In this document: piece after piece, positions 5,514 through 64,000 of the stretch | How the letters are laid out: the number at the start of each line of letters is the position of its first letter | Position numbering within the stretch: the stretch's first letter is position 1 | From: Mactra antiquata | Lineage: Eukaryota | Reading direction: 5' to 3' | Assembly (NCBI GenBank): GCA_047288015.1 | Contig: CM103819.1 | Span: 32,561,354 to 32,625,353 of the forward strand | DNA: 64,000 bases | Position numbers and translations under genes: made by a program | Notes under the pieces: generated by a model | What the model saw: the letters and a program-made list of their open reading frames with translations, nothing else | Told to the model about the DNA's origin: nothing | Databases searched by the model: none

Positions 5514-5640
5514 AAATAAGTGATTTGATAAGGCCCTGTTATTTTTCGAGGGTAGTTGTATTGGCCCAAGGCCGAAGGCCGAGGGCTAATACGACTGTCC
5601 CGAGGAAAAATAACAGGGCCTGTATCAAATCACTTATTTA
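5514..5640. repeat. Long inverted repeat or hairpin, with arms of about 40 bp and a loop of about 45 bp
   Basis: 'ttaaataagtgatttgataaggccctgttatttttcgaggg' pairs with 'cccgaggaaaaataacagggcctgtatcaaatcacttatttaa'. Confidence 0.85.
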
Positions 5641-5699
5641 ATGACAAGTTTATTAAATAACTACTTACTGAACATCAACAAACGCGTCAAGTTCAATAA

Positions 5700-16924: not shown

Positions 16925-17125
16925 AGCTCGATTGTGAAAAAAGTTCTTACAACTTAGATTAATCACTCTCGAGCGCAGCCGAGTGGTTACGACGTTGGGC
17001 TGGTAATCATTGGATAGCCAGCTCCGCGTTGGTTCGAATCACATCTAAAACCCACCTCGTTGTTTCCTTGAGCAAGAAACTTTATCCTAATTGCTTAGTA
17101 CTGGGGGACCAGGAAGCGGACTCGA
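16925..17125. mobile_element. SINE family C, composite. A tail fragment in minus orientation at 16925-16968 abuts a plus-orientation head plus body at 16969-17125.
   Basis: '..caacttagattaatcactctcgagcgc' is followed by the tRNA-like segment 'agccgagtggttacgacgttgggctggtaatcattggatagccagctccgcgttggttcgaatcac..' and ends '..gcggactcgagagtg'. The copy at 34190-34400 is a full reverse-complement match. Confidence 0.6.
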
Positions 17126-17418
17126 GAGTGTAGGGATTAAAAACGGCTATATATATATATATATTACCAAGATTATGTTTGTTGGTATGTTCTACAGTAT
17201 TGATACAGTTAAGTCTTTCCATCTCAAATACACCACAGACTTTTTATGATAAGCAACAGCTCAGCATCCAGTCGTAAAACATCGGGTATTTCCGTATCCA
17301 CGGTGAAATACGAAGCATACTAGCCGATATGGTCAGATTGCTGAGCACCAGACATTGTTATAATAAAATCGAGACAGAAAGTGTATACAATTCCCTATTG
17401 TATATTAATACATACTAC

Positions 17419-17517: not shown

Positions 17518-18065
17518 TTTTGTTACTGTGTTTGAAACCTAGACTATAAAATGCAAATACAAATTACTTATTTAAAATAATTTATGTTTACTCAATTTGA
17601 TAAACAAGCCGAACATTTACGACGGTTGACTGAAAGCCTGAAAAGAAAATTACGCTTTGGATCGACCCCTATCCAAAACCACACCGTCTTTCCTTTTATG
17701 CAGATTTGAACGTGATCACAGTGTAAGTTGCAGTACCATCGTTCACGATCAAACTCTGAAAATCTCTATTTAATCATAGATCACAGATCATAATCATAGG
17801 GAGAGACAGTTTATTATTATAGTCAACTTGACAAAAACAAATTTCACTATAATGAACGATGGGTCCACAAATCGTCATGACAATTCATCTGAAGTTAAAT
17901 AAATGTTATTTCGCAATATACGAATGAATAAAAGAGGCTGTCAATCATTAATGGCCACGGTAACGTTAAAATAACTATCCTCTTGTCAGCTAAAGTTTTG
18001 TTAGACAAAATGATACATGTCATACAACATCTGACTCGCTTTCAAGATTTTCGACGTGGCAAGGA

Positions 18066-18517
18066 ATAGGGTATGTAAGTCGCGTCATGTGACCTCCGAG
18101 ATTTTACGATGTTTTCTAACTTCCGGGTACAAACACAAGTTTAACGTCATGGCGCTTTCCATTAGATATTGGGCTAAATTCATAGATGGACACGAAAAGC
18201 TTACAAGGAAGAGCGAGGGTTGGGTGGAGAGTAGCAGGGTGCTCCGATTTGTAATTGACGTCTTCAGGGTCATTTTAAGCCCATATATCTTCCTATTTTT
18301 AGAAACAAAATTTACCTACCAGCACAGATCAGCCCAATTTTCCTTTCCTTTGGATTAACAGGAAATCTAAACAAACTACAAGTCTGTTACCCACCAGTAC
18401 GATGCGTAGAGCCAAAATCATAACAGTAAACCATTGTACAACTGAGCGTTCGGGTTTACTTACACTTTCGATTTTCAACTTCCGGGTACATCAGTCAACG
18501 AGACTTACATACCCTAT
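18066..18517. mobile_element. MITE-like element, family 2, with terminal inverted repeats 'TAGGGTATGTAAGTC...GACTTACATACCCTA'
   Basis: A copy with about 85% identity lies at 62969-63413. Both start 'atagggtatgtaagtcgcgtcatgtgacctccgagattttacgat' and end 'gagacttacataccctat'. The ORFs at 18056-18358 and 62848-63072 are internal and spurious. Confidence 0.7.
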
Positions 18518-20702
18518 GGTATTTATGGCGGACAATACATATGTATACATACATATGTGTAAATTAAGAATATTCATAATTTGCTCCAAAACATAGTCAT
18601 GAAAATCTACACTATATTATATAGATTTAAATTTAGCAGTGATATTATTTGCAAAAATGCGATTATATATACATGTTTATAATATTTATTCAAATTTGGT
18701 AAACATAACTGAGTATAAACTGTAATTCAAAAGAAGATTGCCTTGTGAACTATATAGTAATGGATACGTGTTCCCTAGTTGTTTATAAAATAAAATTATT
18801 TAATTTGTGATAATATTAAAGATTTATCTTTATAACTATTGATTAATTCGATTGTTTAAGAATGCATATTTTGTTTTTGAACGATATCGTAATGTATGAC
18901 AAGTTTATGTAAAGTTTGATATCAATGTCAATGATAACTCTCTATTCATAGTTATTTTTAAACATTTGTTATTTGACATTAACAACACATTTGTTTTCTT
19001 CATTTACTACCTAGCAATGTAACATCATCTAAACTACTGCATTCCAGATATATGTATGTACATGAACAATGCAATTACATTAACACAATACCGAAAGTCA
19101 ACAGACAACATTGCTCATTTTTCTCACAAAAATCACTTTGATTCTTGTTGGATCCTTCGAGCCTTTGGTGTAGGAAAGTAGCACAGTAAGAGTTCTACAA
19201 GTTAAACTTAATTTGTGACTACTTTTGTTCTCAGCTTTGTATGGTGTGGACGACAGTCGAACTACTCGATGTCCCTGAAGAGGCTTAGATTTCTAATGCT
19301 ATTGCTAATTACATACCTTCACCAGTGGTTGACAACTGTCCTACATATATACAGGGCTCGAATTTAACCAAAAATATGACTTGCATTTTTTTGCGAGTTG
19401 ATTTTATTTCAACTCGCAAAATGAAAATAAACACTCACTTTTTCTCCAAATTTCAGTATATGGCTTTGATGACGGGTCTGGTTTGGATTTTTTTGCTATT
19501 GAGCTGGTCCGACTGAAGAGCGTTGAATAAATTTGTCCATGTTTACTTGCTACCCACGCCTGAGAGATTTATTATCTAATATAATGCGTATTTTTGAGGC
19601 GATTTCAACAACTAACCTCTGACATTGTAAGAATGGACCAAATTTCACGAAGGTACAAATGTATGTAGGTCCCACCCGGGAATCCAACGAACGACTCCTG
19701 GATTGAAAGTCAAGCTTCCCATAAACTTAGCTAAGGGAGGACTGAACGCTAGTTACAGAAGTGATTAAAATTTAGTGGTGGGACTTTTCCCACGTACCAC
19801 AGTTTGTATGTTGCCATAGTTTGATAGGATTCAATTTTCCACCAATGAACTTGAATGTGTTAACGCTATATTTGAAAAAGTATTTACAATGCATGATGAC
19901 AAGTTACACACTGTAAGACAATAGTTGAAGTATAGGAAATATGTTAACAAGTTGTTCATTCCTTTCACGATAGCTTACAACGAAAATTAGTGGCGAAGCT
20001 GGTCATTCTCCAGTACGCACTTGCGTTAGATCGAAAATAAAAACCCAATGAATGAAAAAAACTTAATTTAAAACTGCTAGAAAATGAAGCCAAAAATGGG
20101 TTAGGTGTTAATGCAATTATCCGTGAAACAAGTTACTGGATTGAAATCCGTAAGAACTCAGGAACGAGTAATTCCTATCTGGACAAAATAGTGATTTGTA
20201 AAACAAATGTGATGTAGTTTGAGTAAGAATTTGGCGAAAAGGCCTAAAGCGTGCATTTTCGTGTTACGCTTTCAAAATTTCACGTAGCAGCCCCCTAGTC
20301 TGAAAAGATAATATCTGCGCGTAACTTTAAAAAGACTCAAGCTACGCCACTGAAAATCATCGCGAGTCAATGAATTTGACGTAGGAAGTCTGATGATTAA
20401 ATACAAAACTTATTCAGGAAGTACGATATTGTGTAATTAAAGAAATTGATGGGAAAAGTTTTGAACATTTATTAATGCTTTCTGCTTTGGTCTGTCGACG
20501 AGTTTTGTCATAATTATTTTGTGAAATCGTAGATCTACAGATCTATTATTATGAGCTACAATGTATGTACACTATGATTGCATCTCACAAGTCAGAGGTT
20601 AGGAGGTAAACGATTCTACGATCAATTATGTTTTGAAAATCGCTGGGTTCCGAAAATAGTACAATTGTAGAAGTTTGATATTATTTTTTTAAAAACTTTG
20701 GT

Positions 20703-23917: not shown

Positions 23918-24493
23918 TCATTCAACACGATTAATGAACCTTTTTAAGGCATTAGGAATTGGAAGCTTTACAATGTCTGTTGATTTCCAGGCACATTGTT
24001 CCAATATTTGTAATCTACAGAGAGCCTTTAGAGTCTTTACCACAGAAGAGCTCATATTAAGTTCATCTTTACAATACTTGAAAGCTTTTCTTTGTAGAGT
24101 TAGTGTTGGCTTGCCATCATATTGGTACTTTAATGCCTCGTTCAATGACTGAACAGTCATGTTTTCAAGCAGTGTTTCAGTAATTTCATGAATGTAGTCA
24201 ATCAATATAGCTTCATCATACTTTTGTTGCTTCTCAAATGTTTCAGGATGATAAAGAATAGAGTTACAGAAAACATTAATAGGAAAAATTCCATTCTCAT
24301 TACAGTTTGGATCAGCACCATTTTGAATTAAAAGTCTAAAAGTTGTAATGCTACGTTCATCCAAACCAAGTGGAATAGAGATAGCAAGAAATGCATGCAG
24401 AGAATTACCAGAAATATTTTCATCTTCAATTGGTCCAAATATAGAGGGGTTTGCACCATGGCGTAATAATGTTTCCGTACATTTGGTCACAAA
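23918..24493 (-). CDS. Continuation of the same ASB-like reading frame after the TGA: more ankyrin repeats plus a C-terminal SOCS box (..LKALCRLQILEQCAWKSTDIVKLPIPNALKRFINRVE*)
   Basis: It is in the same frame as 24494-25570, separated only by the TGA and one codon (..DTNIR-TGA-FVTKCTETLLRHGANPS..). The SOCS-box consensus (L..LCR..I......LPLP..L..) matches. The 'M' in the ORF track here is a GTG codon. Confidence 0.6.
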   Translation of the reverse strand, partial: FVTKCTETLLRHGANPSIFGPIEDENISGNSLHAFLAISIPLGLDERSITTFRLLIQNGADPNCNENGIFPINVFCNSILYHPETFEKQQKYDEAILIDYIHEITETLLENMTVQSLNEALKYQYDGKPTLTLQRKAFKYCKDELNMSSSVVKTLKALCRLQILEQCAWKSTDIVKLPIPNALKRFINRVE

Positions 24494-25570
24494 TCATCTA
24501 ATGTTTGTATCCTCATCATCAAAACGGCGCATTAAAGTTTTAACATTTCCGTACAAACAATGCAAAGCTGAAGGGAAAGCACCTCGACCAAATGCTGTCT
24601 GTACATTCTTTCCTTCATGCTCTGATTCAAAGTGCACTTCATTAAAATTAGGATCAACACCTGCATTTAAAAGGACTACCATACAGGCAGCAATGTAAGG
24701 AAAAGTTCTTCCGAAGTCAGATGCTGGAGTATGACTTATAAGACTATAAAGAGGGTAAGTTCGAAAAGGAATAGCACAGACAGGATTTTGTTTATGTTTT
24801 AATAAAACTGATGTGACTGCCAAAAATGATTCGTACCATGTTTTCTTAAAAGAAAAACAATATGAATATAACACATGATACAAATTCATTCCACCGAACA
24901 ATGATGTAAGGGAAGTATTACACTTCAGAAGAACATCTAAACACTCAGCATTAGCTTGCTTTAAGGCTGTACCAATGGCTGATTTAATATCTTCACTAGA
25001 GGGTCTTTGTTTTAATAATAATCTCAAGGCACTAGAAGAACTACTGGCACAAGCTGCTGATAAATGATTATCACTTCCTTTAATTCCTAGTTTAGTTCTA
25101 ATTGAAGAAACATCTAGAATTGATCGAATACAATCTACATGACCACATTCACCCGCAACATCTAATGGAGTAACCATGCTTGTTTCACTTGTCAAATTCT
25201 GTGAACTTTCTGTTGGCTTCTTTACCCATTTGAATTTAGTTCTTGTAGTAGAATAATCCTGAGGGCGCTCTTGTAATATCATTACAGAAATTGATCTGTT
25301 GCCAAAGTTAGCAGCTAGATGAATGTATGGGTGGTATTTTGGCTCATGTGGTGGTTTGAACAAACCCATAGCAAAAATCATCCCCACTGCTTCAATATTG
25401 TTGGCCATGATGGCATGATGTAACACATCATAGCCGCCCTCATCAGTCCAGGCAAGCAAATACTTCCTTTCACATTTCTCAAGACATTGTCTTACACTAC
25501 TAACGTCCTCAGTTGTGAGAATTTTCTTATATAAAGTTTTCTTCAAGTCTTCTATTTTTGCTGCCATCAC
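24494..25570 (-). CDS. Ankyrin-repeat protein, the N-terminal 358 aa of an ASB-like (ankyrin repeat and SOCS box) gene. It ends at an in-frame TGA at 24494-24496.
   Basis: Ankyrin-repeat consensus segments are present ('GGYDVLHHAIMANNIEAVGMIFAMG', 'TPLDVAGECGHVDCIRSIL', 'LLNAGVDPNFN'). The continuous ORF is 1074 nt. Confidence 0.7.
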   Translation of the reverse strand: MMAAKIEDLKKTLYKKILTTEDVSSVRQCLEKCERKYLLAWTDEGGYDVLHHAIMANNIEAVGMIFAMGLFKPPHEPKYHPYIHLAANFGNRSISVMILQERPQDYSTTRTKFKWVKKPTESSQNLTSETSMVTPLDVAGECGHVDCIRSILDVSSIRTKLGIKGSDNHLSAACASSSSSALRLLLKQRPSSEDIKSAIGTALKQANAECLDVLLKCNTSLTSLFGGMNLYHVLYSYCFSFKKTWYESFLAVTSVLLKHKQNPVCAIPFRTYPLYSLISHTPASDFGRTFPYIAACMVVLLNAGVDPNFNEVHFESEHEGKNVQTAFGRGAFPSALHCLYGNVKTLMRRFDDEDTNIR

Positions 25571-36468: not shown

Positions 36469-37035
36469 GTAAGTTTTGTTTTAAAAGAAGAAAGCCATAG
36501 GCAGACCAAGCGAAGGTCAATTTAGTCTGGAGCATTCTCATAAGTCAGAGTCTAGAAGGTAAACGATTCTAGATCGACTATGTCTTGATAATCTCTGGGT
36601 TTCGAGAATGGTCTGGGGATCCCGCCATGAAAATATACGGCGGTATTTTAAAACATTTTAAGACATAGTGAACATTGGAAATGAGATAACAATACAATAA
36701 TGAATACGGGCTGGAGACCATGCAATATAGTAAGCTAAATGCCACTTTAGACTTTCCGTGCGATAGCACATTAGGTATACCATGTTTTGAAATCTATCGA
36801 TGAAGCTAAGGCTGACCAGTTTAACCTTGTGTACTAATATGAGGCGCTTGATGGGTGGCCAAGCAATCGCATATTATCTCATGCATGCTATTCTCACTAT
36901 AGCTGTCAAAACAAATATATGCATTCAACATTTTGTTTGAATGGAGAGAAAAATCATTCCGATATAGGAAATAATCATGTACCTGAGAACTTTGATAATC
37001 TAACCCTTAGGCGCCCCTACCTTCCATAAGAAGAT

Positions 37036-37312
37036 TTTTTTGTTTAGGTTTTAACGCCGTAGCAACACATTGTACAAGTCATATCACGGCCGTCAGTCAA
37101 CCTACTCACCGTTCCTGGAAAGGCTAAATCTCTGGATTTAGCTGTTAACCAGTTACTAGGCGCATACTTCCGTCAGTGACTGATTTAGAATCAGTGGTAG
37201 GAGGGAGAATGGCCGTAGAAATTATTTCATGACCAAGCTCCACGAAAGTAGGTCCCGCCCCTCGATCAGTAGGCTTGTGCACAACCGACTGAGCTAGCCG
37301 GGCGGGTCCCAT
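37036..37312 (-). mobile_element. tRNA-derived SINE, subfamily A, with an internal deletion in the head
   Basis: About 90% identical to 4672-4985 ('..gtcatatcacggccgtcagtcaacctactcaccgttcctggaaaggctaaatctctggatttagctgttaaccagttactaggcgcatacttccgtcagtgactg..gactgagctagccgggcgggtccc'). Confidence 0.8.
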
Positions 37313-44439: not shown

Positions 44440-45010
44440 ATTATTTGGATTGTACATCGTTTATCAACACACTTTTATTTGGCTATTTATAGCTATTGGA
44501 ACACCAACCAGCACATTACCCCCCCCCCCAGCTAGCTCAGTCGGACGCACACAAGTCTACTGATCGAGTGGTCGTGGGTTCAATCCCCGGGCGTGGCATC
44601 CTTTCGTGGAGCTTGGTAATGAAATATTTTTTACGGCCATTCTCCCTCCTACCACTGATTCTAAATCATGTAGGGCAGTTGTCAGTCAATGTGACGGAAG
44701 TATGCGCCTAGTAACTGGTTAACAGCTAAATCCAGAGATTTATCCTTTCCAAGGACGGTGAGTAGGTTGACTGACCGCTGTGATATGACCTATAAAATGT
44801 GTTGCTACGGCGTTAAACCCAAAACCAAAAAAAAACAACCAGCACAATTTTCTCTTACCAGTTCACATATACCCTTCCCCAAGGAGCTGACAACTTCTCC
44901 ATACCCGGAGGAAAGCGATATTAATGCCGAATCTTTATGCCAGGGTATGACCTTTCGCCACTGGGAATCGAACCAGAACCGCCGAATTCGAAACAAGCTT
45001 GATAATTACT
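44440..45010 (-). mobile_element. SINE family D-like copy in minus orientation, interrupted by a nested SINE A insertion
   Basis: The tail part 'ttatttggattgtacatcgtttatcaacac' at 44440-44515 resembles the end of the copy at 29330-29600. The head part at 44847-45010 is the reverse complement of '..caagcttgtttcgaattcggcggttctggttcgattcccagtggcgaaaggtcataccctggc'. Confidence 0.5.
44516..44836 (+). mobile_element. tRNA-derived SINE, subfamily A, inserted into the D-like SINE with a 10-bp target-site duplication, AACCAGCACA
   Basis: Head '..cagctagctcagtcggacgcacacaagtctactgatcgagtggtcgtgggttcaatccccgggcgtgg..'. Tail '..gttaaacccaaaaccaaaaaaaaac'. The sequence 'aaccagcaca' is at 44506-44515 and again at 44837-44846. 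Confidence 0.8.
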
Positions 45011-48006: not shown

Positions 48007-48834
48007 TTACGACAGTAAACTTAATATGTCCTGTAGAAGTTCTAATATTGACTTCTGGTCACGTGATTTCCCCAGAACAACAACAACCAAGTCAGATATA
48101 ATACCAGCAGTGATTATATTGACATGTGTTTCACAAGTCTTACAGTTATAGTTGGTTGCTATGGTTTCATTTTTATAAAAATCAATGTCACGTAAATCAA
48201 TGTTATTGACATAATTCATTCTATTTTCTTTAACTGAATGTTCACCGATAAACGCTCCTGATCTGTTAGAACTATCCCTCTTAGTTTTGTTTATTTCATC
48301 ACCAACAATATCCCCACAACCATCACCATTGTCATCATCATTATATCCATCATTATCTTCACCAGCACTATCATCATCATTAAGTTTTTCATATCTTCCA
48401 TTATTATTATTCTTCTCTTGACATTGCTTTACTTCACGTCCTTCGTCGTCTCTCCCATATTCATCATTGCTCTGATTCAGACCAGCCTCTCCACTTACAT
48501 CCAGAACATCTCTGTGACACCTTTCATCTCTATGGCATCTTTCATCTCCCTTGCACTTTTCACCATTCGTGTTAAATCCATCGCGTCCTATAAAACACCC
48601 ACTCTTATCAACCATACATATAAAGTTAGTATTTAGCATTCCTACTGAAAACAGTGTCCGTTTTGGACTTTTCAAAAGGGAGACTATTGTCGGCGCTTCT
48701 GTCTCTGGTACTTCGAGATCTCCACATCGCAATATAGTATTCCCATTTGAATCAAATACATTCAAAGAAATTTCAGGTTTGAGCGAAGTTTCCTTACTCC
48801 AGAATTTTCTCACAGATTCTAGTTTAGATTCCAT
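48007..48834 (-). CDS. Candidate single-exon gene: a 275-aa acidic protein with an internal 'DERCHRDERCHRD' repeat, an N- and D-rich low-complexity region and a C-terminal hydrophobic segment
   Basis: It is the longest non-repeat ORF in this region. The ATG context is aaacaATGg. No family was recognised. Confidence 0.35.
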   Translation of the reverse strand: MESKLESVRKFWSKETSLKPEISLNVFDSNGNTILRCGDLEVPETEAPTIVSLLKSPKRTLFSVGMLNTNFICMVDKSGCFIGRDGFNTNGEKCKGDERCHRDERCHRDVLDVSGEAGLNQSNDEYGRDDEGREVKQCQEKNNNNGRYEKLNDDDSAGEDNDGYNDDDNGDGCGDIVGDEINKTKRDSSNRSGAFIGEHSVKENRMNYVNNIDLRDIDFYKNETIATNYNCKTCETHVNIITAGIISDLVVVVLGKSRDQKSILELLQDILSLLS

Positions 48835-50796
48835 TGTTTCTAAACTACCAACTATAAGCCTTGGTTATCAATGTTGATTCGCCGCCACGCTTCAAATTAT
48901 TGACAAAACACTCTACAAATGCACAATTCACGTTAAAATAAAGTACAGTGCGTTTTAAGTTTGCCTCATTGCTCAACATACTATTCACTGTTACATAAAG
49001 ACCTTTTATTTCGCTCAGTATTGATTCTGCTCAATGTTGTTGGGTTTTTTACAATAACTATTGCACAATGAAGCTCAACCGTATCCGCCAAATGCTTTCG
49101 TTAATAATTATTCCTTATCTCTTCCACAGTTACTTGTCATTTAATGTTACATTATGCTAGTTAACTAGAACGTAAATCTGTTGAATAACTTAAGGAAGGC
49201 AAATATCGACTGAAGCAAAGCTAATGTAAGTTTAATGGAACATATTCTACCTTTACCTCAATATGGATTTATCAGCCAATATCCTTTTATACGACTTTCA
49301 CCCAGACAGCGACAGATGCTGATTTTAATTAATGTAGAAATATTATTATGACTCATTGACTCTGGTTTATGATCGATATTGTAGGACTGCATTGAAGAGA
49401 GTAAACATAATAAAAGCCCAAGGGATCATTGTTATTAATTTTATTACCATAAATATGTAGTAAAGTATGATCATTTATAAACCGTGCAGGTTTGATTGAT
49501 GTGATAGTGGAATCAATGAACCTTATCACAAAACATTCTACGGTAAAAATCATATACACAGAAAACATTAATAACAACAATACTTTGCCTATCGATTCCA
49601 AACAAAAAACAACAACAAAGAAACGTTTAATTACTCACACTTTTGAACCCTGTTTCATTAAAAATGAGTATATCACTATTAATTGTAACGGAATGATTTT
49701 TAAAATGATGCATATATAAAAAAGCCACCCTTAACACAAAAACAAAAATAAAATATAGGTCGCCCTGCTGGTCTCTTAGAATGTCCACTTGTTTGACCCC
49801 CCATACAGGTCATTTTGTAGAATTTTTAGTAAAACATATAACATTGAGAAGTGACTTGTTCCAGTGTTTTCTTTAATATTAAAAATCATTATATATTATA
49901 TATAATACATGCATGACTCAATTGTCAAAATGTGTTGAGAAAATAAATATTTATTACATGGGCATTGTCTCAAAATTGGTGCTCTAAGCGCCCGTAACAC
50001 TAGCTTTATTATTCATTTCAGAACCAAAAGGCTTGTGTCCCGTAACCGTTTCTGCATTCTATATCATGTGCAAGAAATGCCGTTGTTGCGAAATATGGCT
50101 ACTGCTAGAAATGATAAAAATACAAAACTGTCAAACGCCGCTGTCTTAAAACTATTCTTCTTACGAAGGTGCTGTGCTAATTAACATAACATGAAAAACA
50201 AGCATACTGCAGTCTATGATCTTAATGACGATAAATACATTGTGTTTTATTGGCCAATATACAAAAATATCATTTGATTGTGCTGAAAGATAAAATATAC
50301 AATAATTTAATGTTCGTGGATTGTGCCCGGAGGGTTTCAAATATATTTGTTTAATTTTGATGTATGTGATATTTTTGTATTTCAAATACAAATGTCAACT
50401 GGCGTGTTTTGGGCGATAAGTATTTATTGAAATTGTTATCACATAAAATTTAAGTAGAACTGCGAGATGAGGGTATTTGCCAATTTATATTGAACTGTCA
50501 CATATGGTGTGTATACACTCCAAATTTAATAGACTATTTCCGGAATTCATTTTTTCGGTTTATTTTCCACGAGGTACAAACATACTTTTACTGTTACTAT
50601 GAAAATATGTGTATACGGATTTAATCCGTGTTTCTTGATTTTCAGCAATAATGTGTAGAAAACTTTGTTTGTACCGCCTGCGCACGGATGGCAAAACCCA
50701 TAAATGTGAGTTCCGAATTAAGTCTATTAAAGCCACTATACTCAATTACAGCAGATAAGAAAACAATCTTACAACCTTAAAGTCAATTACATATAA

Positions 50797-50963
50797 CCGA
50801 CTATGGTTTATTCCATAGTCGCGGTTATCCGGGATACGTTGGGTTTTATCCTTAACTTCCGTTAACGTATTCACCCATGACAATGCACGTGCTTTTCCGA
50901 ATGATATTCACTTTTCAACCGACCACCGGACAATAGGTATGCACTTATTATAGCTTGTATTTT
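50797..50963 (+). repeat. Split direct repeat A1, the 5' terminus of the tyrosine-recombinase retroelement
   Basis: 'ccgactatggtttattccatagtcgcggttatccgggatacgttgggttttatccttaacttccgttaacg...cttattatagcttgtatttt' is identical to 56921-57087 and 58264-58430. Confidence 0.85.
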
Positions 50964-51690
50964 TGTGTGTTGTTAATTTTGTTGATTATTTTAATATTGA
51001 GAATTGCTGATGTTTTTATTTAATGCTTGATTTAAAAAGCATAAATTTGTTAGGAGGTAATAGGACTGGTTTGTGATTACACATACACATATTATTTGTG
51101 TGTTTAAACCGAGCGTAGACCATAGAGCATTCTTAAGTGTTTCAATTTTGTTTTATTTGATTGAAGTGAATAGTTATAAATTATTGGAAAGGCATATTTG
51201 TAGGTAAGGGTTTATTGTATCAATAGTGATAGTAGGCTTATGTTAAACTTTTGATACTGGTTACCACGTGGCAGGTATGATGGCGTTTACCACGTGGCAT
51301 TGAAAATTTTTGCATGAGGTGTACGGGTAAGCATTATGAAATATTTGTTAGGTATTACAATGTTAGCTATTGTTACATGCATTTTTAAATTTGAACTTGT
51401 AGTTAATATTTGACCATGGTTACTATCATATGCAAGTTTATTTATCCAAATATTATTTCGAGGTATAGGTCATTTGAGCAAGGCGTGTAACACGTGGCGG
51501 TAATATAAATTCTCCCATTAGTTAAATTGTGTGTAGCGATTGGAGAAATGTTTTTAATGAAATAATCCAGCAACTGAGTTTTAAAACATAAGTCCAGTTG
51601 GTCCAACGAAATTGCTTGCTGTTGTTTAATTTCAAATTCAGGTATTATTGACGACCATTTATGTAAAACAATTCTTCAAGAGATTGACTT

Positions 51691-52572
51691 GTGTCTTTCA
51701 TCAAGATGGAAAACTCTAGTGACCCTGTACAAAGAGTGGAGGAACACGTGGAGGAAGACCAACCAGGTCCTGCCAAGAAACAAAGAGTGGAGAAAAATAC
51801 TGACAGTAGCAATGGTAATATAATTACATTAGATCTTGATATAGAAAGATTATTGCAAAATAGTAATGCTGCGGTTCATAGTATACATTCAAGTATTGGA
51901 AGTCATGTACCCTCTAGCATTAGGAGCAAAATTTCCTCAGGCCAATATGTTGATCTTGAAAATGTACTTTCTCAAGATAGTAATTTGAGCGAAGGAAAGG
52001 TTTGTGTTAATTTGTCTGGAGAACTAGCTATTAAACCAGACTCCAAAAAGGTTAAAATTAATAACCTTGATTCATGGACTGATGCCTTCATCATATTTAC
52101 TAGTATTTATTTATTGTCGCATCCTGATCAAAGTCAAGCACTTCTTAAATACATGCAAAACGTTCGAACAGGTGCGAAGCGTCATGGAGGTTTGGGTTGG
52201 AAGCTCTATGACGAACAGTTCAGAATGAAATTGGCCGCTGACCCTTCTATGTGTTTTGACAAGATTGACTATGAACTTTGGTTGCTATATATGACACCGG
52301 GTGGTGCATTACAAAAAACCCAAACTAATCCAAACTTTAGTCAATTTAATTATAAGAAATGCTATGATTTTAACTATAGATATTGTAGTAGAGTAGATTG
52401 TCAGTATAAACATCTGTGTATAATTTGTGGTTTAAAACATCCTTGTAGGTCGTGTTATAGAGCCAGAGGTACATCAGCGCCAAGTCTGCGGGCCTCTGTC
52501 CCCCAGGGCCAATATTCCGATATCAGACCAGGTAGTAAACCTAGACATACCGGTCCGAGAGCGGGTAAATAG
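51691..52572 (+). CDS. Retroelement ORF1: a Gag-like protein with a C-terminal zinc-knuckle-like motif, C-x2-C-x3-H-x4-C ('CIICGLKHPCRSC')
   Basis: 293-aa ORF, the first ORF after a leader of about 730 bp. Its position and Cys/His motif are typical of DIRS/Ngaro gag. Confidence 0.6.
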   Translation: MSFIKMENSSDPVQRVEEHVEEDQPGPAKKQRVEKNTDSSNGNIITLDLDIERLLQNSNAAVHSIHSSIGSHVPSSIRSKISSGQYVDLENVLSQDSNLSEGKVCVNLSGELAIKPDSKKVKINNLDSWTDAFIIFTSIYLLSHPDQSQALLKYMQNVRTGAKRHGGLGWKLYDEQFRMKLAADPSMCFDKIDYELWLLYMTPGGALQKTQTNPNFSQFNYKKCYDFNYRYCSRVDCQYKHLCIICGLKHPCRSCYRARGTSAPSLRASVPQGQYSDIRPGSKPRHTGPRAGK

Positions 52573-52615
52573 TTTAGGTTTCACTCCAATAAAAGCAAAT
52601 GTTCTTGAAAGTTTT

Positions 52616-54187
52616 TTGTGTTTATATCCAAGACAGGATGATGCAAACATTTTGAAAAATGGCTTTAAAAGTGGGTTCAAGATAAATTTTACAGGGCTTG
52701 TCTCAATTCAGGAGGTTAAAAATTTAAAAAGTGCTAACTCTCACATGAATGAGTTAAAGCAAAAGATTTTAAAAGAAGTTAAATTAGGTAGAATTATGGG
52801 TCCTTTTGACACTCCACCATGGAATAACTTAAAAATATCACCTGTTGGTCTGGTACCCAAATCTGATGGTTCATGGAGGTTAATCACCCACCTTTCTTAT
52901 CCTGCTGGTTCCAGCGTTAATGATGGTATAGATGATGATTTATGTTCGGTTTTTTATACTTCGTTTGACCAAGTTGCTGATATGGGTTTTTGCTTAGGTA
53001 GGGGTGTATTGATGGCAAAAAGAGATATCAAATCCGCTTTCCGTCTGTTACCAATCAATCCCTCTGATTTTCATTTGTTGGGTATCAAAGTTGATGGCAA
53101 ATATTATGTAGATAAAATGTTACCCATGGGGCTAAAGATAAGTTGTGCATTGTTTGAAAACTTTTCGACTTTCATACATTGGCTAGTTAGTTACTTGGCA
53201 AAATTAAATTCTTTAGATCATTACCTAGATGACTTCATATTTGCAGGCAAGGCTCAGTCTAGCGATTGCACAAAATTAGTAGATACATTTACAATGGTGT
53301 GCTCTAATATAGGAATTCCTATAGCGGAAGATAAATCAATAGACCCAACCACTGTTTTGGTTTTCCTAGGTCTTGTAATAGATTCGGTTCAAATGTGTAT
53401 AAAAATACCCCTGGATAAATGTCATGAGTTAATCAAAATTTTGAACGAATTGTTATCGAAAAATAAAATTACGTTACTTGAATTACAAAAATTGACTGGG
53501 AAATTAAATTTCTTTGGAAAAGCAATTCGTTGTAGCCGGGCATTTTTGCGTCGTTTCTATGATTTAATGACCCCTCTTAAGAAACCCCATCATAGATTAC
53601 GTTTGACAGAGGAAGTTAGGAATGATATGAAAATGTGGCTGACATTTCTTAAAACTTTTAACGGAGTGACGTACATTCCAAAGAGTGTATGGATAAGTAA
53701 CTGTGTATTAGAATTATTCACCGATAGTGCAGGGTCTGGTCATTTAGGTTGTGGTTGTTATTTTAAAGGTAAATGGGCATTTTGGGCTTGGCCGGATCAT
53801 TGGTTGAAAGAAGAGATTTTATCAGACATGACATTTCTAGAAATGGTGCCGGTTTTACTGTCTATGTATTTATGGGCTTGGGAATTAAAACAAAACAAAA
53901 TCATTTTCAATATTGATAATGAATCTTTGGTATCCATTTTGAATAAGCAGTCGTCTCGCTCGAAGCGAGTTATGCACCTGGTGAGAGAATTTATCTTAAT
54001 AGCTATGAAATACGACATTTGTTTTAAGGCTGTTCATATTAGATCAATTCATAATAATATTGCTGATGCTATTTCTCGAAAACAGTGGCTTCGTTTCAAG
54101 GAGATCGCACCTGCGGCATTAGAACTACCAGAGCCAATTCCGCACAAATTCCTATCAACAGTCTTAAAGATGAAGTTGACAGACTAG
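52616..54187 (+). CDS. Retroelement ORF2: reverse transcriptase plus RNase H
   Basis: RT motifs 'SPVGLVPKSDGSWRLITHLS', 'DIKSAFRLLP', 'HYLDDFIFAG' (the YxDD box) and 'FLGLVID'. RNase H motifs 'FTDSAGSG', 'EMVPV', 'FNIDNESLV' and 'HIRSIHNNIADAISR'. Confidence 0.85.
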   Translation: MCLYPRQDDANILKNGFKSGFKINFTGLVSIQEVKNLKSANSHMNELKQKILKEVKLGRIMGPFDTPPWNNLKISPVGLVPKSDGSWRLITHLSYPAGSSVNDGIDDDLCSVFYTSFDQVADMGFCLGRGVLMAKRDIKSAFRLLPINPSDFHLLGIKVDGKYYVDKMLPMGLKISCALFENFSTFIHWLVSYLAKLNSLDHYLDDFIFAGKAQSSDCTKLVDTFTMVCSNIGIPIAEDKSIDPTTVLVFLGLVIDSVQMCIKIPLDKCHELIKILNELLSKNKITLLELQKLTGKLNFFGKAIRCSRAFLRRFYDLMTPLKKPHHRLRLTEEVRNDMKMWLTFLKTFNGVTYIPKSVWISNCVLELFTDSAGSGHLGCGCYFKGKWAFWAWPDHWLKEEILSDMTFLEMVPVLLSMYLWAWELKQNKIIFNIDNESLVSILNKQSSRSKRVMHLVREFILIAMKYDICFKAVHIRSIHNNIADAISRKQWLRFKEIAPAALELPEPIPHKFLSTVLKMKLTD

Positions 54188-55086
54188 TTTCGGTTTCTTT
54201 GTCTAAGAACACAGTGGATTCTTATCAAGTTGGAATACGAAGATTTGAGTCATTCAGGAGCCTTTATGGAATGTCGTTATGCTGGCCACCAATAATCGAA
54301 CAACTCAGCTTATACTTAGCGAACCTATCTATACAAGGGTTGTCTTACAACACAGTTAAATTGTATATTTGTGCCATTGCTTTTCAATGTAAATTAAAAG
54401 GCGTTGAGGATGTCACAAAGAGTTTTGTTATACAGAAACTCTTGACTGGTATTCAAAAGTCATACAAGAAAAAAGTTAGGCTTCCTATAACAGTAGAAAT
54501 GTTGCAATCAATGCTGCCGAATTTATCATCTGTTTGCACGGATCTATATGAAAGCAAGCTATTTGGTGCTGCGTTTACCCTAGCATTCTTTGGTTTCTTT
54601 CGAGTGGGTGAATTTACAGTTACTAGGAAAGAGTATATGTTGAGAATAATCTCATTTAGAGACATTACTTTAGACTTAAAGGCTGGGACTTTGTGTATAA
54701 ATTTGAGATATTCAAAAACAGATCAAAATGGAAGAGGTGTTTTTATAAAGTTATTTAAGAATAATACTTTGATTTGTCCGGTGGAGAACATGTCTTCTTT
54801 TCTTCAAGTGAGACCGGATAATAAGGGGCCCCTGTTTTGTCACTTTGATGGCAGACCTTTGACTCGATATCAATTCACCGCTGTTCTAAAGAAGGCATTA
54901 GCGAGTGTTAACGTAGAATATTCGTATTATAAAGCTCATTCTTTTAGAATAGGTGCAGCATCAACCGCTGCAAAATTAGGTCATTCTGTAGAGGTAATAA
55001 AATCAGCAGGACGTTGGTCTTCCGATGCATTTAGAGGTTATGTTCAGCCAATAAATGACTTGCATAAAATGCCTCTGTTACTGTAA
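54085..55086 (+). CDS. Retroelement ORF3: a tyrosine recombinase of the phage-integrase type, overlapping the end of ORF2 in another frame
   Basis: Catalytic signature residues: 'FFRVGEF' (R), 'RYSKTDQNGRG' (K), 'HSFRIGAAST' (H-x-x-R) and 'GRWSSDAFRGYV' (Y). There is an N-terminal core-binding-like region. Confidence 0.8.
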   Translation: MASFQGDRTCGIRTTRANSAQIPINSLKDEVDRLVSVSLSKNTVDSYQVGIRRFESFRSLYGMSLCWPPIIEQLSLYLANLSIQGLSYNTVKLYICAIAFQCKLKGVEDVTKSFVIQKLLTGIQKSYKKKVRLPITVEMLQSMLPNLSSVCTDLYESKLFGAAFTLAFFGFFRVGEFTVTRKEYMLRIISFRDITLDLKAGTLCINLRYSKTDQNGRGVFIKLFKNNTLICPVENMSSFLQVRPDNKGPLFCHFDGRPLTRYQFTAVLKKALASVNVEYSYYKAHSFRIGAASTAAKLGHSVEVIKSAGRWSSDAFRGYVQPINDLHKMPLLL

Positions 55087-55213
55087 TTATCGACTCTAGT
55101 TTGCTCAATGTAATACATTAAATAAACGCATTTTAAAATGTATATGAAGGTTATACATGTTGAACGGGGGTTCTTGTTGTATAGTAGTTAATGGATAATT
55201 TTATGTCTATATT

Positions 55214-55813
55214 ATGTATGTACATAATTACTTATTTCTAGAATCTGTGGTGTGGATTATTGGATCTTCTATTGTAAAGAATGCATTTATTGCTGCAAGA
55301 CAAAATAGTCATTTGAATATCAAGAATACAACCGTATGGTGGCAAGGATATAGTGGCCTCTGTCTTGAAAACTTGCGGTCTAAAGTAAGGCTGTTAGGTT
55401 CTGTCAATAATGACAGACCAGATATAATGATAATTCATTGCGGTGGCAATGACATCGGGAAAATACCCGTCAAGGCAATCAGAAATATCATAGGTTTTAT
55501 TTTTGCTTTAATCAAGAAATATTACCCAAGTATTAAGATTATTTGGTCAGAGATTTTGCCAAGATCGAATTGGAGTTATTCTTGCAATATTAAAAAGATG
55601 GAAAGATGTAGAAAACGTTTGAACAGTTTTGCTGGCAAATTAGCCATAAGCTATGGTGGCTTATATATTAGACATCAGTCTATTTGCGAGAAAAGTCACA
55701 TGTATTTGAAAGACGATGGTGTTCATCTGAATACTGAAGGAAACATATTATTCCTTGCTAAATTAAAGCAATCAATTTTAGACTGTTTTAATGGCTTAAG
55801 TTACACAGAGTAA
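55214..55813 (+). CDS. Retroelement ORF4: an SGNH/GDSL-family hydrolase (esterase or lipase-like) with all four conserved blocks
   Basis: Block I 'IIGSSIVKN' (nucleophilic Ser). Block II 'QGYSG'. Block III 'IHCGGNDIG' (GxND). Block V 'DDGVHLN' (DxxH). Confidence 0.7.
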   Translation: MYVHNYLFLESVVWIIGSSIVKNAFIAARQNSHLNIKNTTVWWQGYSGLCLENLRSKVRLLGSVNNDRPDIMIIHCGGNDIGKIPVKAIRNIIGFIFALIKKYYPSIKIIWSEILPRSNWSYSCNIKKMERCRKRLNSFAGKLAISYGGLYIRHQSICEKSHMYLKDDGVHLNTEGNILFLAKLKQSILDCFNGLSYTE

Positions 55814-55942
55814 TTAAAAATGGGACGCGCTGATGCAAAGTGTATTCTTTTTTGTTTTAATTTGTCATTCGTCATTCGCTGCCGCAAACTTTGGGTTTAG
55901 TTTGGCGGTTGTCTGTTTTTATTGCATAAAAACCGACAATGT

Positions 55943-58900
55943 GGCATCCAGCGAAGCAGAATGACTTGTATGGATGTACATTTATTGTGATATAAACTCT
56001 TAATCTAGATGTACCACTGAATATTGCATCCCAGGGTACAATGCATATAATTGTCATTTGGTGCTATTTATGTGAAATTGAATTTGTATTGCATACCCAT
56101 TTGAGTCAATTGAATTTGTTGTTATGATACCTTGAATTTGCCATTATGTAAAATAATTTTTGCCTACAGTGCTGTAGGTTGGCTGTCGCTTCTTTGTCTG
56201 TTGCTCTTCAAAATTAGTAAGGTTGAGCTAGTCCCTATACCTTCAGAAAGGTCGGCGGCTCAAGCGATGGCCAGTTTTGCTCAGTTGGCTATTTATAATT
56301 TGCCGAGTTGGCTATTTACTTTTGATACTTTTAATTCGCAACTTGTAAAGTAAGTTTTGCCTACAGTGCTGTAGGTTGGCTGTCGCTTCTTAGTCGTAGG
56401 CGGCTGAAGCGATGGCCCGTTTTGCCCAGTTGGCTATTTATATAGTTTTGCCTAGTTGGCTATTTATATTTTGCCGAGTTGGCTATTTACACAGTTTGCC
56501 GAGTTGGCTATTTAGATTTGGCCGAGTTGGCTATTTACACAGTTTGCCTAGTTGGCTATTTAGATTTTGCCCAGTTGGCTATTTACATACTTTTGCCCAT
56601 TTGGCTACTAACATACATTTGCCTAGTTGGCTATTTGCTACTTAATTTCATATGCTTTTGACTTAAATACAGTTACATGAAATTGGTATGTATACAAATT
56701 CAAGTTTTTGCTATTTAAAAGAATTGCATCAGTCGCGCCCATTTTTCGCCATACTTACAATATTAAATCATTAAATGTAGAGTTATTTACTTCATGGTTT
56801 GTTTTTACTTCTTTACAAATATCAATGATTGTGTGACAGCGATTTTTCCAATAGAGAACATCTATACACCAGTACTAAGCTGGAACACAATCATTGCTAC
56901 CAGAGTATTCCAGGATAAAACCGACTATGGTTTATTCCATAGTCGCGGTTATCCGGGATACGTTGGGTTTTATCCTTAACTTCCGTTAACGTATTCACCC
57001 ATGACAATGCACGTGCTTTTCCGAATGATATTCACTTTTCAACCGACCACCGGACAATAGGTATGCACTTATTATAGCTTGTATTTTAAACCCACCCACC
57101 CAACCCACATTAAATTTTATAAGCTTGCTGCGCTGTTATATTTATATTTTCAGTAGTACAAATATGGAATACTCCAAGAACTTGTGATTGATTTGTTGAA
57201 CATTATACATTAGTTCAAATCGTTAACAGCAATCATCAACTGGAGTAAATACCACATAGGATGGTGCGACTGACGTTAAACAACTGGCATCCAGCGAAGC
57301 AGAATGACTTGTATGGATGTACATTTATTGTGATATAAACTCTTAATCTAGATGTACCACTGAATATTGCATCCCAGGGTACAATGCATATAATTGTCAT
57401 TTGGTGCTATTTATGTGAAATTGAATTTGTATTGCATACCCATTTGAGTCAATTGAATTTGTTGTTATGATACCTTGAATTTGCCATTATGTAAAATAAT
57501 TTTTGCCTACAGTGCTGTAGGTTGGCTGTCGCTTCTTTGTCTGTTGCTCTTCAAAATTAGTAAGGTTGAGCTAGTCCCTATACCTTTAGAAAGGTCGGCG
57601 GCTCAAGCGATGGCCAGTTTTGCTCAGTTGGCTATTTATAATTTGCCGAGTTGGCTATTTACTTTTGATACTTTTAATTCGCAACTTGTAAAGTAAGTTT
57701 TGCCTACAGTGCTGTAGGTTGGCTGTCGCTTCTTAGTCGTAGGCGGCTGAAGCGATGGCCCGTTTTGCCCAGTTGGCTATTTATATAGTTTTGCCTAGTT
57801 GGCTATTTATATTTTGCCGAGTTGGCTATTTACACAGTTTGCCGAGTTGGCTATTTAGATTTGGCCGAGTTGGCTATTTACACAGTTTGCCTAGTTGGCT
57901 ATTTAGATTTTGCCCAGTTGGCTATTTACATACTTTTGCCCATTTGGCTACTAACATACATTTGCCTAGTTGGCTATTTGCTACTTAATTTCATATGCTT
58001 TTGACTTAAATACAGTTACATGAAATTGGTATGTATACAAATTCAAGTTTTTGCTATTTAAAAGAATTGCATCAGTCGCGCCCATTTTTCGCCATACTTA
58101 CAATATTAAATCATTAAATGTAGAGTTATTTACTTCATGGTTTGTTTTTACTTCTTTACAAATATCAATGATTGTGTGACAGCGATTTTTCCAATAGAGA
58201 ACATCTATACACCAGTACTAAGCTGGAACACAATCATTGCTACCAGAGTATTCCAGGATAAAACCGACTATGGTTTATTCCATAGTCGCGGTTATCCGGG
58301 ATACGTTGGGTTTTATCCTTAACTTCCGTTAACGTATTCACCCATGACAATGCACGTGCTTTTCCGAATGATATTCACTTTTCAACCGACCACCGGACAA
58401 TAGGTATGCACTTATTATAGCTTGTATTTTAAACCCACCCACCCAACCCACATTAAATTTTATAAGCTTGCTGCGCTGTTATATTTATATTTTCAGTAGT
58501 ACAAATATGGAATACTCCAAGAACTTGTGATTGATTTGTTGAACATTATACATTAGTTCAAATCGTTAACAGCAATCATCAACTGGAGTAAATACCACAT
58601 AGGATGGTGCGACTGACGTTAAACAACTGGCATCCAGCGAAGCAGAATGAATTGTATGGATGTACATTTATTGTGATATAAACTCTTAATCTAGATGTAC
58701 CACTGAATATTGCATCCCAGGGTACAATGCATATAATTGTCATTTGGTGCTATTTATGTGAAATTGAATTTGTATTGCATACCCATTTGAGTCAATTGAA
58801 TTTGTTGTTATGATACCTTGAATTTGCCATTATGTAAAATAATTTTTGCCTACAGTGCTGTAGGTTGGCTGTCGCTTCTTTGTCTGTTGCTCTTCAAAAT

Positions 58901-59606
58901 TAGTAAGGTTGAGCTAGTCCCTATACCTTTAGAAAGGTCGGCGGCTCAAGCGATGGCCAGTTTTGCTCAGTTGGCTATTTATAATTTGCCGAGTTGGCTA
59001 TTTACTTTTGATACTTTTAATTCGCAACTTGTAAAGTAAGTTTTGCCTACAGTGCTGTAGGTTGGCTGTCGCTTCTTAGTCGTAGGCGGCTGAAGCGATG
59101 GCCCGTTTTGCCCAGTTGGCTATTTATATAGTTTTGCCTAGTTGGCTATTTATATTTTGCCGAGTTGGCTATTTACACAGTTTGCCGAGTTGGCTATTTA
59201 GATTTGGCCGAGTTGGCTATTTACACAGTTTGCCTAGTTGGCTATTTAGATTTTGCCCAGTTGGCTATTTACATACTTTTGCCCATTTGGCTACTAACAT
59301 ACATTTGCCTAGTTGGCTATTTGCTACTTAATTTCATATGCTTTTGACTTAAATACAGTTACATGAAATTGGTATGTATACAAATTCAAGTTTTTGCTAT
59401 TTAAAAGAATTGCATCAGTCGCGCCCATTTTTCGCCATACTTACAATATTAAATCATTAAATGTAGAGTTATTTACTTCATGGTTTGTTTTTACTTCTTT
59501 ACAAATATCAATGATTGTGTGACAGCGATTTTTCCAATAGAGAACATCTATACACCAGTACTAAGCTGGAACACAATCATTGCTACCAGAGTATTCCAGG
59601 ATAAAA
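55943..59606 (+). repeat. Tandem array of about 2.7 copies of a 1343-bp unit (a B plus A unit) forming the 3' terminal region of the retroelement
   Basis: The period is visible from identical ORF-track entries at 56132, 57475 and 58818. The units are nearly identical, with single substitutions such as 'gacttg' versus 'gaattg'. Confidence 0.9.
56400..56640 (+). repeat. 21-bp minisatellite 'TTTGCC[G/T]AGTTGGCTATTTA[C/G]A', about 10 copies. It is repeated in each 1343-bp unit, also at 57743-57983 and 59086-59326.
   Basis: 'ttgccgagttggctatttacacagtttgccgagttggctatttagatttggccgagttggctatttacacag...'. It generates the spurious 73-, 77- and 60-aa ORFs in the track. Confidence 0.9.
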
Positions 59607-60664
59607 CAAGCTTTAGACACAAACTAACCTTCTCAAACTGTTTTGTTTTCACAATTTAAGTGAAACAAAGTGACCATTTCTTAAAAAAGGCGGTTCCTTT
59701 TATAAGAGCTCAGTACACACATTTCTTTGTTTATGATAAATACAATTAACTCAACATAGCTGTGTTTAGCTAAACAATACAATTTGGAGGTTGTTTAATC
59801 TTTCACAAGACTCTATCCCAACCAGTTTGTGATCAAACCTCAGTTTTAGTATATAACAGACAAATTTTACTTTCGGTTTCGATCTATTTCACTTTGAAAT
59901 GCAGTGAATAACGTTGAAAGATATAAGTTTAAATGACTTTTGACAATTTTTCTTCGATAAATTGATACAACATACATCTGTATCAGTTAATTGTTTCCAT
60001 TTATTTTACAGTCCATGTACAGGTTATATTGTCTTGATATAGGGGCTTTAACTGACTATAAATAGGGTGTCCATTTTAGAATGTGTTTTGATCATGAGAT
60101 TTTATATGAATGACAGTTAAATCCAATTGGACAATACCCTCATATGCAAACACTCTTTTATCAAAGTCCGATTAGTAGACAGTGCATTTGCAGTATCCAT
60201 TTTGAATATCACAGAAGAATTAGCTCAAAATTCACAGCTCAGAGGGTGTATTTAGATTTAACACTACTGTATAACCTAAGAAATCAGATCAATGAGAAAT
60301 CCGGAATCCTCTGACTTCTGAACAATTTTCTTGGCCCTATTTTGGACCCTGAGTGCAAAAACAACCTGAGAAAATCAGACAAAATCTGTACAATACGAAT
60401 GTTTTCTTCAATCCAGAACTTGTTCAGATTTCTCAAATTACACTATATTACTTCGACTCAACATTTACACTATAGAAAACAGTCTGTTTTCCGGATACTT
60501 ATTCTCGTACCCAGAGGTTATCAAGAAAATCTTGATGGTTTGCGAGAATGCTTGCGGGTTTATTCCATTGACTATTAAAAACTGTTACACTTGAACGTTT
60601 AAGAGAAATAGACCAATAAGCCTGTACATTGTACCGACTTAGAACTTAACAAAGTACTAAAATG

Positions 60665-62690: not shown

Positions 62691-62968
62691 CCCATGTGCG
62701 TTGATATGATTTTGTAACTATTTATAATTCAACTCAAAACTAGAATACGAAACAAAATTTTTGTAAATGTTTTATTATTATCTACGCCGTTTACACTTTA
62801 TTTATGTATTAACCGTGGTCGGTTTACCTAACCAGTTTTCGTGAACATTGTTCGTATTCAAGTCCTCGCTTACCCATCCACAAGGAGCCGATAACTACGC
62901 GATATACAGAGGAAATTCGTCATTATTGTCGAATTTTCATGAGAGGAAAAGACTTGCCGCGACCGGGA

Positions 62969-63413
62969 ATAGGGTATGTAAGTCGCGTCATGTGACCTCC
63001 GAGATTTTACGATATTTTCTAACTTCCGGGTACAAACACAAGTTTAACGTCTTGGCGCTTTCTTTGGGCTAAATACGTCGATGGACACGCAAAGCTTACA
63101 ACGAATAGCGAGGCATGGGTAGAGTGTGGCAGGGTGCTCTGATTTGTAATTGACGACACCAGAGTCATTTTAAGCCGATATATCTTCTTATTTTTAGAAA
63201 CCAAAATCACCTACCTGCACAGATCAACCCATTTCTTCCTTTCCAGTTGATCAACAGGAAATCTAAACATTCTATACAAGTCTATGACCCACCAGTACGA
63301 TGCGTACAGCCAAAAGCATTATTGTTCCATTGTAAAACTGAGCGTTCGCGTTTACTTTCACTTTCGATTTTCAATTTCCGGGTACATCGGTAAACGAGAC
63401 TTACATACCCTAT
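62969..63413. mobile_element. MITE-like element, family 2, the second copy of 18066-18517
   Basis: Same termini, 'tagggtatgtaagtcgcgtcatgtgacctccgag...' and '...cgagacttacataccctat'. It is about 85% identical across roughly 450 bp. Confidence 0.7.
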
Positions 63414-64000
63414 CGATATTGGATCGCTGGATGCAAAGCCACGCGCTTAAACCACTGCACCACCATCGCGGCATTGGTTTGTGTAATAGTTTAGTTGCCT
63501 AGTGTTTTCAAATGATTATGCAACTCAATTCACATAAAATTGTTCCTAACAAAATAAAAACGATTAAATATCATTCATTCATTTTATCTTAAAGTAAGTC
63601 AATCGATAGCATGAAATAATATAATGCTAAATGATAATTACAAGCAGTTCGTTACATATTAATTATATTTTGAAGTAGCGAGCGTCAGTCCTGAACGTTA
63701 TGTTTTGCTACAAACCATTTTGTTAGTCCTACATGACTGCACATACATATACATGCACACGACTTTATCAACAAATGTCTTAATCATCTTGGTATACACA
63801 TTTGTAAAGCTTGCACTCACTATCTGCCACAAGTGATTAAGTATTATTTTTGACCCTGGCCCATGAGATATAAACCTAAAGCAGTATCTATGATTAAAAT
63901 TAGGTAGACAGCACGTTACCAAACTAACTAAACGTCCAATAATATACTCAATCATATTGCAAACCACACGATTTTAAAGAGTTTCATGTTTACAACAGAT

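Follow-up and report, generated by a model that had tools for sequence, protein, structure and literature searches.

Introduction

The replication and integration of retrotransposons with split direct repeats, such as the Ngaro, PAT and VIPER elements, are known only from models. Ngaro retrotransposons, reportedly described by Goodwin and Poulter in 2004, follow a published scheme of A1-[ORFs]-B1A2B2, in which one copy of repeat A stands at the 5' end, ahead of the open reading frames (ORFs), and B, A and B follow one another without a spacer at the 3' end. Some of these elements have been described with an ORF for an SGNH hydrolase after that for the tyrosine recombinase, and the absence of a methyltransferase separates Ngaro from DIRS-like and PAT-like elements. 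Here we examine a stretch of 64,000 nucleotides from Mactra antiquata (contig CM103819.1 of assembly GCA_047288015.1, positions 32,561,354 to 32,625,353 of the forward strand), which we call the window. By its domain content and repeat architecture, the sequence at 50791-59607 (+) of the window is a tyrosine-recombinase retrotransposon of the hydrolase-bearing Ngaro type, and its 3' repeat module contains one additional unit in perfect register.

Among described Ngaro elements, the hydrolase-bearing DIRS-53_XT of Xenopus (PMC9210276) shares with the window element the same set and order of ORFs, the overlaps between them, and the lack of a methyltransferase. Both have split direct repeats, a 5' A and a 3' series of B, A and B, but B is only 152 bp long in DIRS-53_XT (PMC9210276) compared with 973 bp in the window. 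The window element and six relatives also depart from the spacer-less scheme in having a spacer between A2 and B2, and the window copy departs further in its additional unit, A-C-B, where C denotes the spacer. VIPER of Trypanosoma cruzi likewise ends in B1-A2-B2 after a 5' A1, and the A-spacer-B form of SIRE corresponds to the module that is doubled in the window (PMC6681497). SIRE, however, is dispersed, short and present in thousands of copies, whereas the window module forms a tandem at the terminus of the parent element, with no dispersed copy in the window, and VIPER-like elements form a separate superfamily confined to kinetoplastids (PMC6681497). In Cafeteria burkhardae, isolated AB repeats produced by recombination between the 5' and 3' Ngaro repeats have been likened by their authors to solo long terminal repeats (LTRs) (PMC8547959). 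They demonstrate that recombination between Ngaro repeats takes place in genomes, but they reflect its deletion-type outcome (PMC8547959), whereas the window shows the gain of a unit.

A further comparison is offered by LTR retrotransposons. Solo LTRs and tandem LTR-internal-LTR-internal-LTR arrays represent changes in the copy number of direct repeats through unequal homologous recombination. Unlike those arrays, the present one affects the split A/B module of a tyrosine-recombinase element, and the duplication is limited to the short terminal module, leaving out the coding region. We found no description of an expanded Ngaro repeat module in the literature searched, which did not extend to the original Ngaro paper or to a 2015 review, so an earlier description is possible. 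A single extra repeat is by itself an ordinary structural change. Its perfect register, however, shows the terminal module behaving as a discrete, duplicable unit, and if the number of units varies among copies or individuals, this would bear on the question of circular multimers or recombinase-mediated cassette exchange in such elements.

Results and Discussion

The element ends in 2.73 in-register tandem units

Comparison of the sequence with itself at a lag of 1343 bp revealed a head-to-tail unit of that length repeated 2.73 times at 55942-59607 (3666 bp), with no indels. The lagged identity holds over 55942-58264 and is broken just twice, by mismatches at 56244 and 57308, and near-perfect identity over more than 2.3 kb rules out chance as the source of the repeat. 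When one unit was searched against the window with BLAST, three in-register copies were recovered at 99.9-100% identity, the first aligning over 1343/1343 positions (99.93%) and the last, partial copy over 980/980 (99.90%), along with a 173-bp match at 50791-50963 (99.4%) that represents the 5' repeat A1. A repeat search of the window returned the same 1343-bp spacing. Tandem Repeats Finder, whose period ceiling of 500 bp places a 1343-bp period beyond its reach, reported only sub-repeats of about 24 and 48 bp within each unit. The presence of the array in the assembled sequence is therefore confirmed, and the preliminary description, which had placed about 2.7 tandem and nearly identical units at 55943-59606, was correct to within 1 bp.

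The array has the order B(973)-A(173)-C(197)-B-A-C-B, followed by 7 bp of A, with all parts on the forward strand. The first B (973 bp) lies at 55942-56914 (+), followed by A2 at 56915-57087 (+) and a 197-bp spacer C, found only in the array, at 57088-57284 (+). The second B (973 bp) occupies 57285-58257 (+) and leads into the A of the extra unit, A3, at 58258-58430 (+), a second spacer identical to the first at 58431-58627 (+), and the terminal B of the element (973 bp) at 58628-59600 (+). The array closes with ATAAAAC at 59601-59607 (+), the first 7 bp of A, which we presume to be a crossover overlap with the target site. Local alignments of spacer C to the internal region and to the flanks scored no better than shuffled sequence, ruling out the spacer as a diverged copy of either.

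The units differ by two single bases, both private and one to each outer copy. Base 56244 is C in the first copy and T in the second and third, while base 58651 is A in the third copy and C in the first and second. The alleles at positions 24 and 303 of B therefore read C..C, C..T and A..T in copies 1, 2 and 3, respectively; the three B copies differ at these 2 positions in total, and A1 matches A2 and A3 at 172/173 positions. No solo A-C-B unit occurs outside the array in the 64-kb window. Satellites derived from transposable elements form long arrays independent of their parent; the 2.73 units described here are joined to an intact element and do not make up such a satellite.

Related elements carry a single module with a spacer

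To establish the usual form of the module, we mapped the direct repeats of nine related elements from long contigs; the best match to the window in the reverse transcriptase (RT) is only 65% identical, so that no copy of the same family is among them. Six with clear split repeats were counted: L001, L003, L004, L005, L037 and L038, which derive from three bivalve genomes and three long contigs of the European Nucleotide Archive (ENA). The other three, L002, in which A1 and A2 are present with no detectable B2 or C-rich box (C-box; see below), and L006 and L036, which have no split repeats, are probably degraded or truncated. The arrangement A1...B1-A2-spacer-B2 occurs once in each of the six, giving arrays of 1.47-1.54 units in comparison with 2.73 in the window, and the array is thus as unusually long as had been proposed.

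A spacer separates A2 from B2 in all seven elements and ranges from 144 to 377 bp. It measures 322 bp in the Mercenaria element L001 (12764-13085), 286 bp in L003 of Saccostrea (13884-14169) and 144 bp in L004 of Pecten (15383-15526); in the ENA contigs it measures 330 bp in L005 (11621-11950), 377 bp in L037 (8073-8449) and 191 bp in L038 (7650-7840). Five of the relatives have a spacer of unique sequence. That of L003, the sixth, shows marginal similarity to the region before B1 and to that after A1, with scores matched by 2/200 and 1/200 shuffles, respectively. As all six relatives share the feature, possession of a unique spacer is the normal state in the clade. The baseline in the preliminary description, B1-A2-B2, must accordingly be amended to B1-A2-spacer-B2, and its partial first B is in fact complete at 973 bp; the stretch thought to be missing is the 197-bp spacer, a family trait.

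By this baseline, 1.73 units would be canonical for the window element, and the 2.73 observed correspond to exactly one extra in-register A-C-B. The module of the clade is normally B-A-C-B and that of the window copy is B-A-C-B-A-C-B, with both termini of the element intact. There are practical consequences as well: the spacer will lead annotation pipelines built around A1...B1A2B2 to set the limits of elements in this clade wrongly, and short-read assemblies will collapse arrays of this kind.

Further sources of comparison contributed less. A metagenome scan based on the hydrolase alignment yielded 29 loci, all on short contigs without resolvable terminal repeats, and was uninformative on the array. 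A paralogous repeat beside the Saccostrea element was considered as a source of an empty target site, and was rejected as too diverged around the insertion point. Two of the relatives, L001 (7186-13590) and L005 (6862-12524), are internally deleted, with a truncated recombinase and no hydrolase, and still keep the full A1...B1-A2-spacer-B2 repeats at 98-100% identity, which suggests that they are non-autonomous derivatives mobilized in trans. The contig of L005 also has long tandem arrays on either side of the element, at 1922-5889 (offsets in multiples of about 67 bp) and at 15671-17161 (short-period), which are unrelated to the split repeats.

Origin of the extra unit

The structural variation seen in the window copy is real and tidy, and of a type readily made by ordinary recombination. 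We favor the explanation that the extra unit came from a misaligned homologous exchange between B copies, at the locus or in a master copy, though we hold this tentatively and assign it a probability of roughly 0.42. The normal module is already a tandem of 1.7 copies, with two 973-bp B repeats 370 bp apart, and this makes it prone to misaligned exchange. In the proposed event, B2 of one chromatid would pair with B1 of the other, and an unequal crossover, whether between sister chromatids or between alleles, or else replication slippage, would generate A-I-B-A-C-B-A-C-B, where I is the internal region, with A-I-B as the reciprocal product. The exchange could have taken place at the present locus or in a chromosomal master copy that was then retrotransposed. 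Homologous exchange between B copies predicts the addition of one whole unit, as is seen, and the array stops where the canonical element stops, at the end of B with a short overlap with A. Unequal exchange between direct repeats on the kilobase scale is usually much faster than point mutation and is possible even in a very young insertion. Several considerations nevertheless weigh against this explanation. The sequence contains no evidence of timing, as events after insertion and events before integration look alike; the unequal recombination put forward in the preliminary description is plausible but not demonstrated. The bases that differ among the copies are also instructive here. A crossover between a B1 (C..C) and a B2 (A..T) that had already diverged would leave a middle copy reading A..C, A..T or C..C, and never the C..T that is observed, so that at least one substitution followed formation of the array, at which time the copies had few or no differences. 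This near-identity fits an event at or before integration equally well. In addition, a single locus of the element's family was examined, the best RT in the database being 65% identical, and assembly error stands as a rival, albeit a very unlikely one.

In that last scenario the third copy would be an over-expansion of a near-identical repeat over a true locus of B-A-C-B, and units that are 99.9% identical invite it, the copy number of repeats being a classic source of assembly error. Yet each outer copy has its private base (56244 and 58651), so the copies are not mere duplicates of a consensus, the join is perfectly in register, and the 3.7-kb array falls within the span of a single long read, if the assembly is based on long reads. 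The essential identity of the copies at formation and the exactness of both termini would also be accounted for if the unit was gained during reverse transcription, with the minus-strand cDNA jumping back from B1 to B2 on a second or undegraded RNA and copying C-A-B again; the pattern of single-nucleotide differences implies three equal B copies when the array formed. The frequent recombination of direct repeats by retroviral reverse transcriptases counts in favor of this route, but such switching mostly yields deletions, duplications being much rarer, and none of the six relatives is expanded. The replication of Ngaro elements is moreover uncharacterized, and even DIRS-1 has only been shown to have linear single-stranded cDNA (PMC7192593), so we regard a template switch before integration as rather unlikely. 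A concatemer or rolling circle of the whole element, as the multimeric intermediate of the preliminary description would imply, is rejected, for the 4978-bp internal region occurs once in the window and nothing points to such a concatemer.

Alternatively, the element's own tyrosine recombinase may have joined two B|A junctions, either adding an A-C-B minicircle or inserting the element beside a solo A-C-B. Such a minicircle would come from the resolution of two junctions in a circular form, and A-C-B would then be a modular, SIRE-like cassette. In agreement with this route, every unit has a complete junction, comprising an ATAA-type motif and an inverted repeat whose position is kept in seven elements, so that recombination of one junction with another would involve two full sites. 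The SIRE of VIPER, which consists of A2, about 30 bp of exclusive sequence and B2, matches the module (PMC6681497), and DIRS-1 is reported to insert by preference where a DIRS-1 copy already stands (PMC7192593). Copies of TATE have also been described as showing "more complex patterns of repetitions", which the authors ascribe to possible misassembly or nested insertion (PMC6681497). However, there is no other solo A-C-B in the window, extra units occur in 0/6 relatives, circles have not been observed, and the outcome is the same as that of homologous exchange; on balance we doubt that the recombinase built the array. A bolder proposal is that A-C-B is an autonomous recombination cassette, that the normal Ngaro 3' end is an A-I-B circle fused to an A-C-B minicircle at their B|A junctions, and that the recombinase adds and removes cassettes, the window copy having two. 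We consider this quite unlikely, though if true it would provide the first sequence-level evidence of multimeric circular intermediates in Ngaro replication and would explain the origin of SIRE-like short elements. The extra unit adds to the element a second B|A junction (where the circle would close or crossover take place), a C-box and ten iterons, and is probably neutral baggage.

Conserved motifs at the module boundaries

The motifs at the boundaries of the module may prove of greater interest than the additional unit. They keep their positions in all seven elements, in which the non-coding sequence is otherwise unalignable. At the B|A junction, an ATAA-type motif is followed 2-6 nt on by an inverted repeat (arms of 7-10 bp, spacer of 6-13 nt) and then by GTTAT-like bases. 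This arrangement is found in the window at 56915-56950, 50791-50826 and 58258-58293, and likewise where A begins in each of the six relatives. In A2 it takes the form of ATAAAAC followed by CGACTATGG-TTTATT-CCATAGTCG at 56922-56945. The sequence of the inverted repeat is different in every element, which would amount to compensatory change, and we suggest it as a candidate core site for the recombinase or a hairpin in the cDNA. A1 reads ATAT where A2 reads ATAA in the window element, L001 and L038.

Ngaro-like elements are expected to integrate without a conventional target-site duplication, through a short stretch common to circle junction and target. The window element is bounded by ATATAAC on the left and ATAAAAC, the start of A, on the right; in the relatives, the overlap of the terminus with A is 3-9 bp and has an ATAA core. 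A terminal 7 bp that repeats the start of A is as expected from a crossover by the recombinase within a short overlap of the circle junction and the target. The ends are consistent with the junction-trinucleotide model cited for DIRS elements (PMC7192593).

In all seven elements the spacer opens with a C-rich box, CCCACCCnCCCnCCC (CCCACCC...CCC). In the window this C-box stands at 57091-57106, where it reads CCCACCCACCCAACCC, and again at 58434-58449. Its pattern is confined on the plus strand to the start of the spacer in six of the seven elements. The minus strand of the box presents four G-runs in six elements and three runs plus GG in L038, making it a candidate G-quadruplex-type motif, and the box is often trailed by ATTAAA, AATAAA or another A/T-rich stretch. 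B opens with TGGC or GGC(G/A) in 7/7 elements, and five of them have TGGCGG at a distance of 2-55 nt upstream of B1 (in the window the boundary of the internal region with B1 falls in 55903-55946); these bases are reminiscent of a tRNA-type primer-binding site (TGG...), a likeness we offer as a candidate only. The replication of DIRS-1 involves a minus-strand cDNA that is linear and single-stranded (PMC7192593), and on that account the boundary motifs are candidates for signals in priming, folding or recognition by the recombinase.

B contains a cluster of iterons, 10 copies of the 19-nt TTGCCnAGTTGGCTATTTA, at 56277-56637 (+), and again at 57620-57980 (+) and 58963-59323 (+). The 30 matches in the window (0 expected) all fall within the three B copies, where Tandem Repeats Finder gave periods of 23 and 48 bp. 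Internal short repeats are present in B of the relatives L003, L004 and L005 too. Each B of the window element also has two 52-bp repeats with the palindrome CCTACAGTGCTGTAGG.

Coding region of the element

The Ngaro assignment made in the preliminary description holds, as the array forms the 3' terminus of an element that combines an RT, a tyrosine recombinase and an SGNH hydrolase with split direct repeats. The repeats follow A1-[ORFs]-B1-A2-B2 with two departures, the 197-bp spacer after A and the one added A-C-B. The 5' terminal repeat A1 (173 bp, 50791-50963, +) starts with ATATAAC where the internal copies have ATAAAAC, and is 99.4% identical to those at 56915-57087 and 58258-58430. Between A1 and the array, the internal region (4978 bp, 50964-55941, +) is present in a single copy and comprises a leader, four intact ORFs on the plus strand and a short unique 3' tail with TGGCGG at 55903. 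The element is very young and apparently competent for transposition.

Each ORF overlaps the next in another frame, a feature already described in this order of elements. ORF1 (51706-52572, +), which is gag-like, has its first ATG at 51706 in a frame open from 51688; it gave no match in a Pfam scan and is 36-47% identical (tblastn) to the ORF upstream of the RT in all relatives. ORF2 (open frame 52436-54187, +), which overlaps the end of ORF1, encodes the RT and RNase H, with YLDD at residue 203. Its match to RVT_1 is above the curated Pfam cutoff (E=2.2e-8), and that to RVT_3, an RNase H-like family, is just below it (E=3.6e-4). Among 5.8 billion proteins, ORF2 has 601 homologues at E<=1e-10, the best of which is 65% identical, and those RT homologues with a named source come from bivalves (Mercenaria, Saccostrea and Pecten; 50-58% identity).

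ORF3 (open frame 54067-55086, +) overlaps the end of ORF2 and encodes the tyrosine recombinase. Its Phage_integrase match (E=1.9e-5, 25.0 bits) is slightly below the 27.1-bit cutoff, and its catalytic residues R173, K211, H285-x-x-R288, W311 and Y319 do not vary when it is aligned with the relatives. No match of the rve type (DDE integrase) was returned by Pfam for the ORFs of the element. ORF4 (55214-55813, +) encodes the SGNH/GDSL hydrolase (Lipase_GDSL_2, E=4.2e-11), with GSSI, GGND and DGVHL blocks that are invariant across the relatives, and its protein has no database record. At E<=0.01 the four ORFs match no methyltransferase family in Pfam, and Rfam and tRNA scans of the element gave no hits.

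Surrounding sequence

Elsewhere in the window, host genes are represented by an ORF with a Ninjurin domain and by ORFs with ankyrin repeats and a SOCS box, at 15924-16385 (-) and 23918-25570 (-), respectively, as expected of animal DNA. Other dispersed and local repeats, at 85-91% identity, occur at 4672-4980, 37035-37260 and 44523-44835, at 18063-18523 and 62966-63420, and at 5737-6114 and 6200-6582; they have no relation to the Ngaro element and presumably represent other interspersed repeats. About 2 kb upstream of the element, an ORF of 275 amino acids that begins with ATG (48007-48834, -) has no Pfam match, and the sequence around it, at 48-50 kb, has a strongly negative GC skew.

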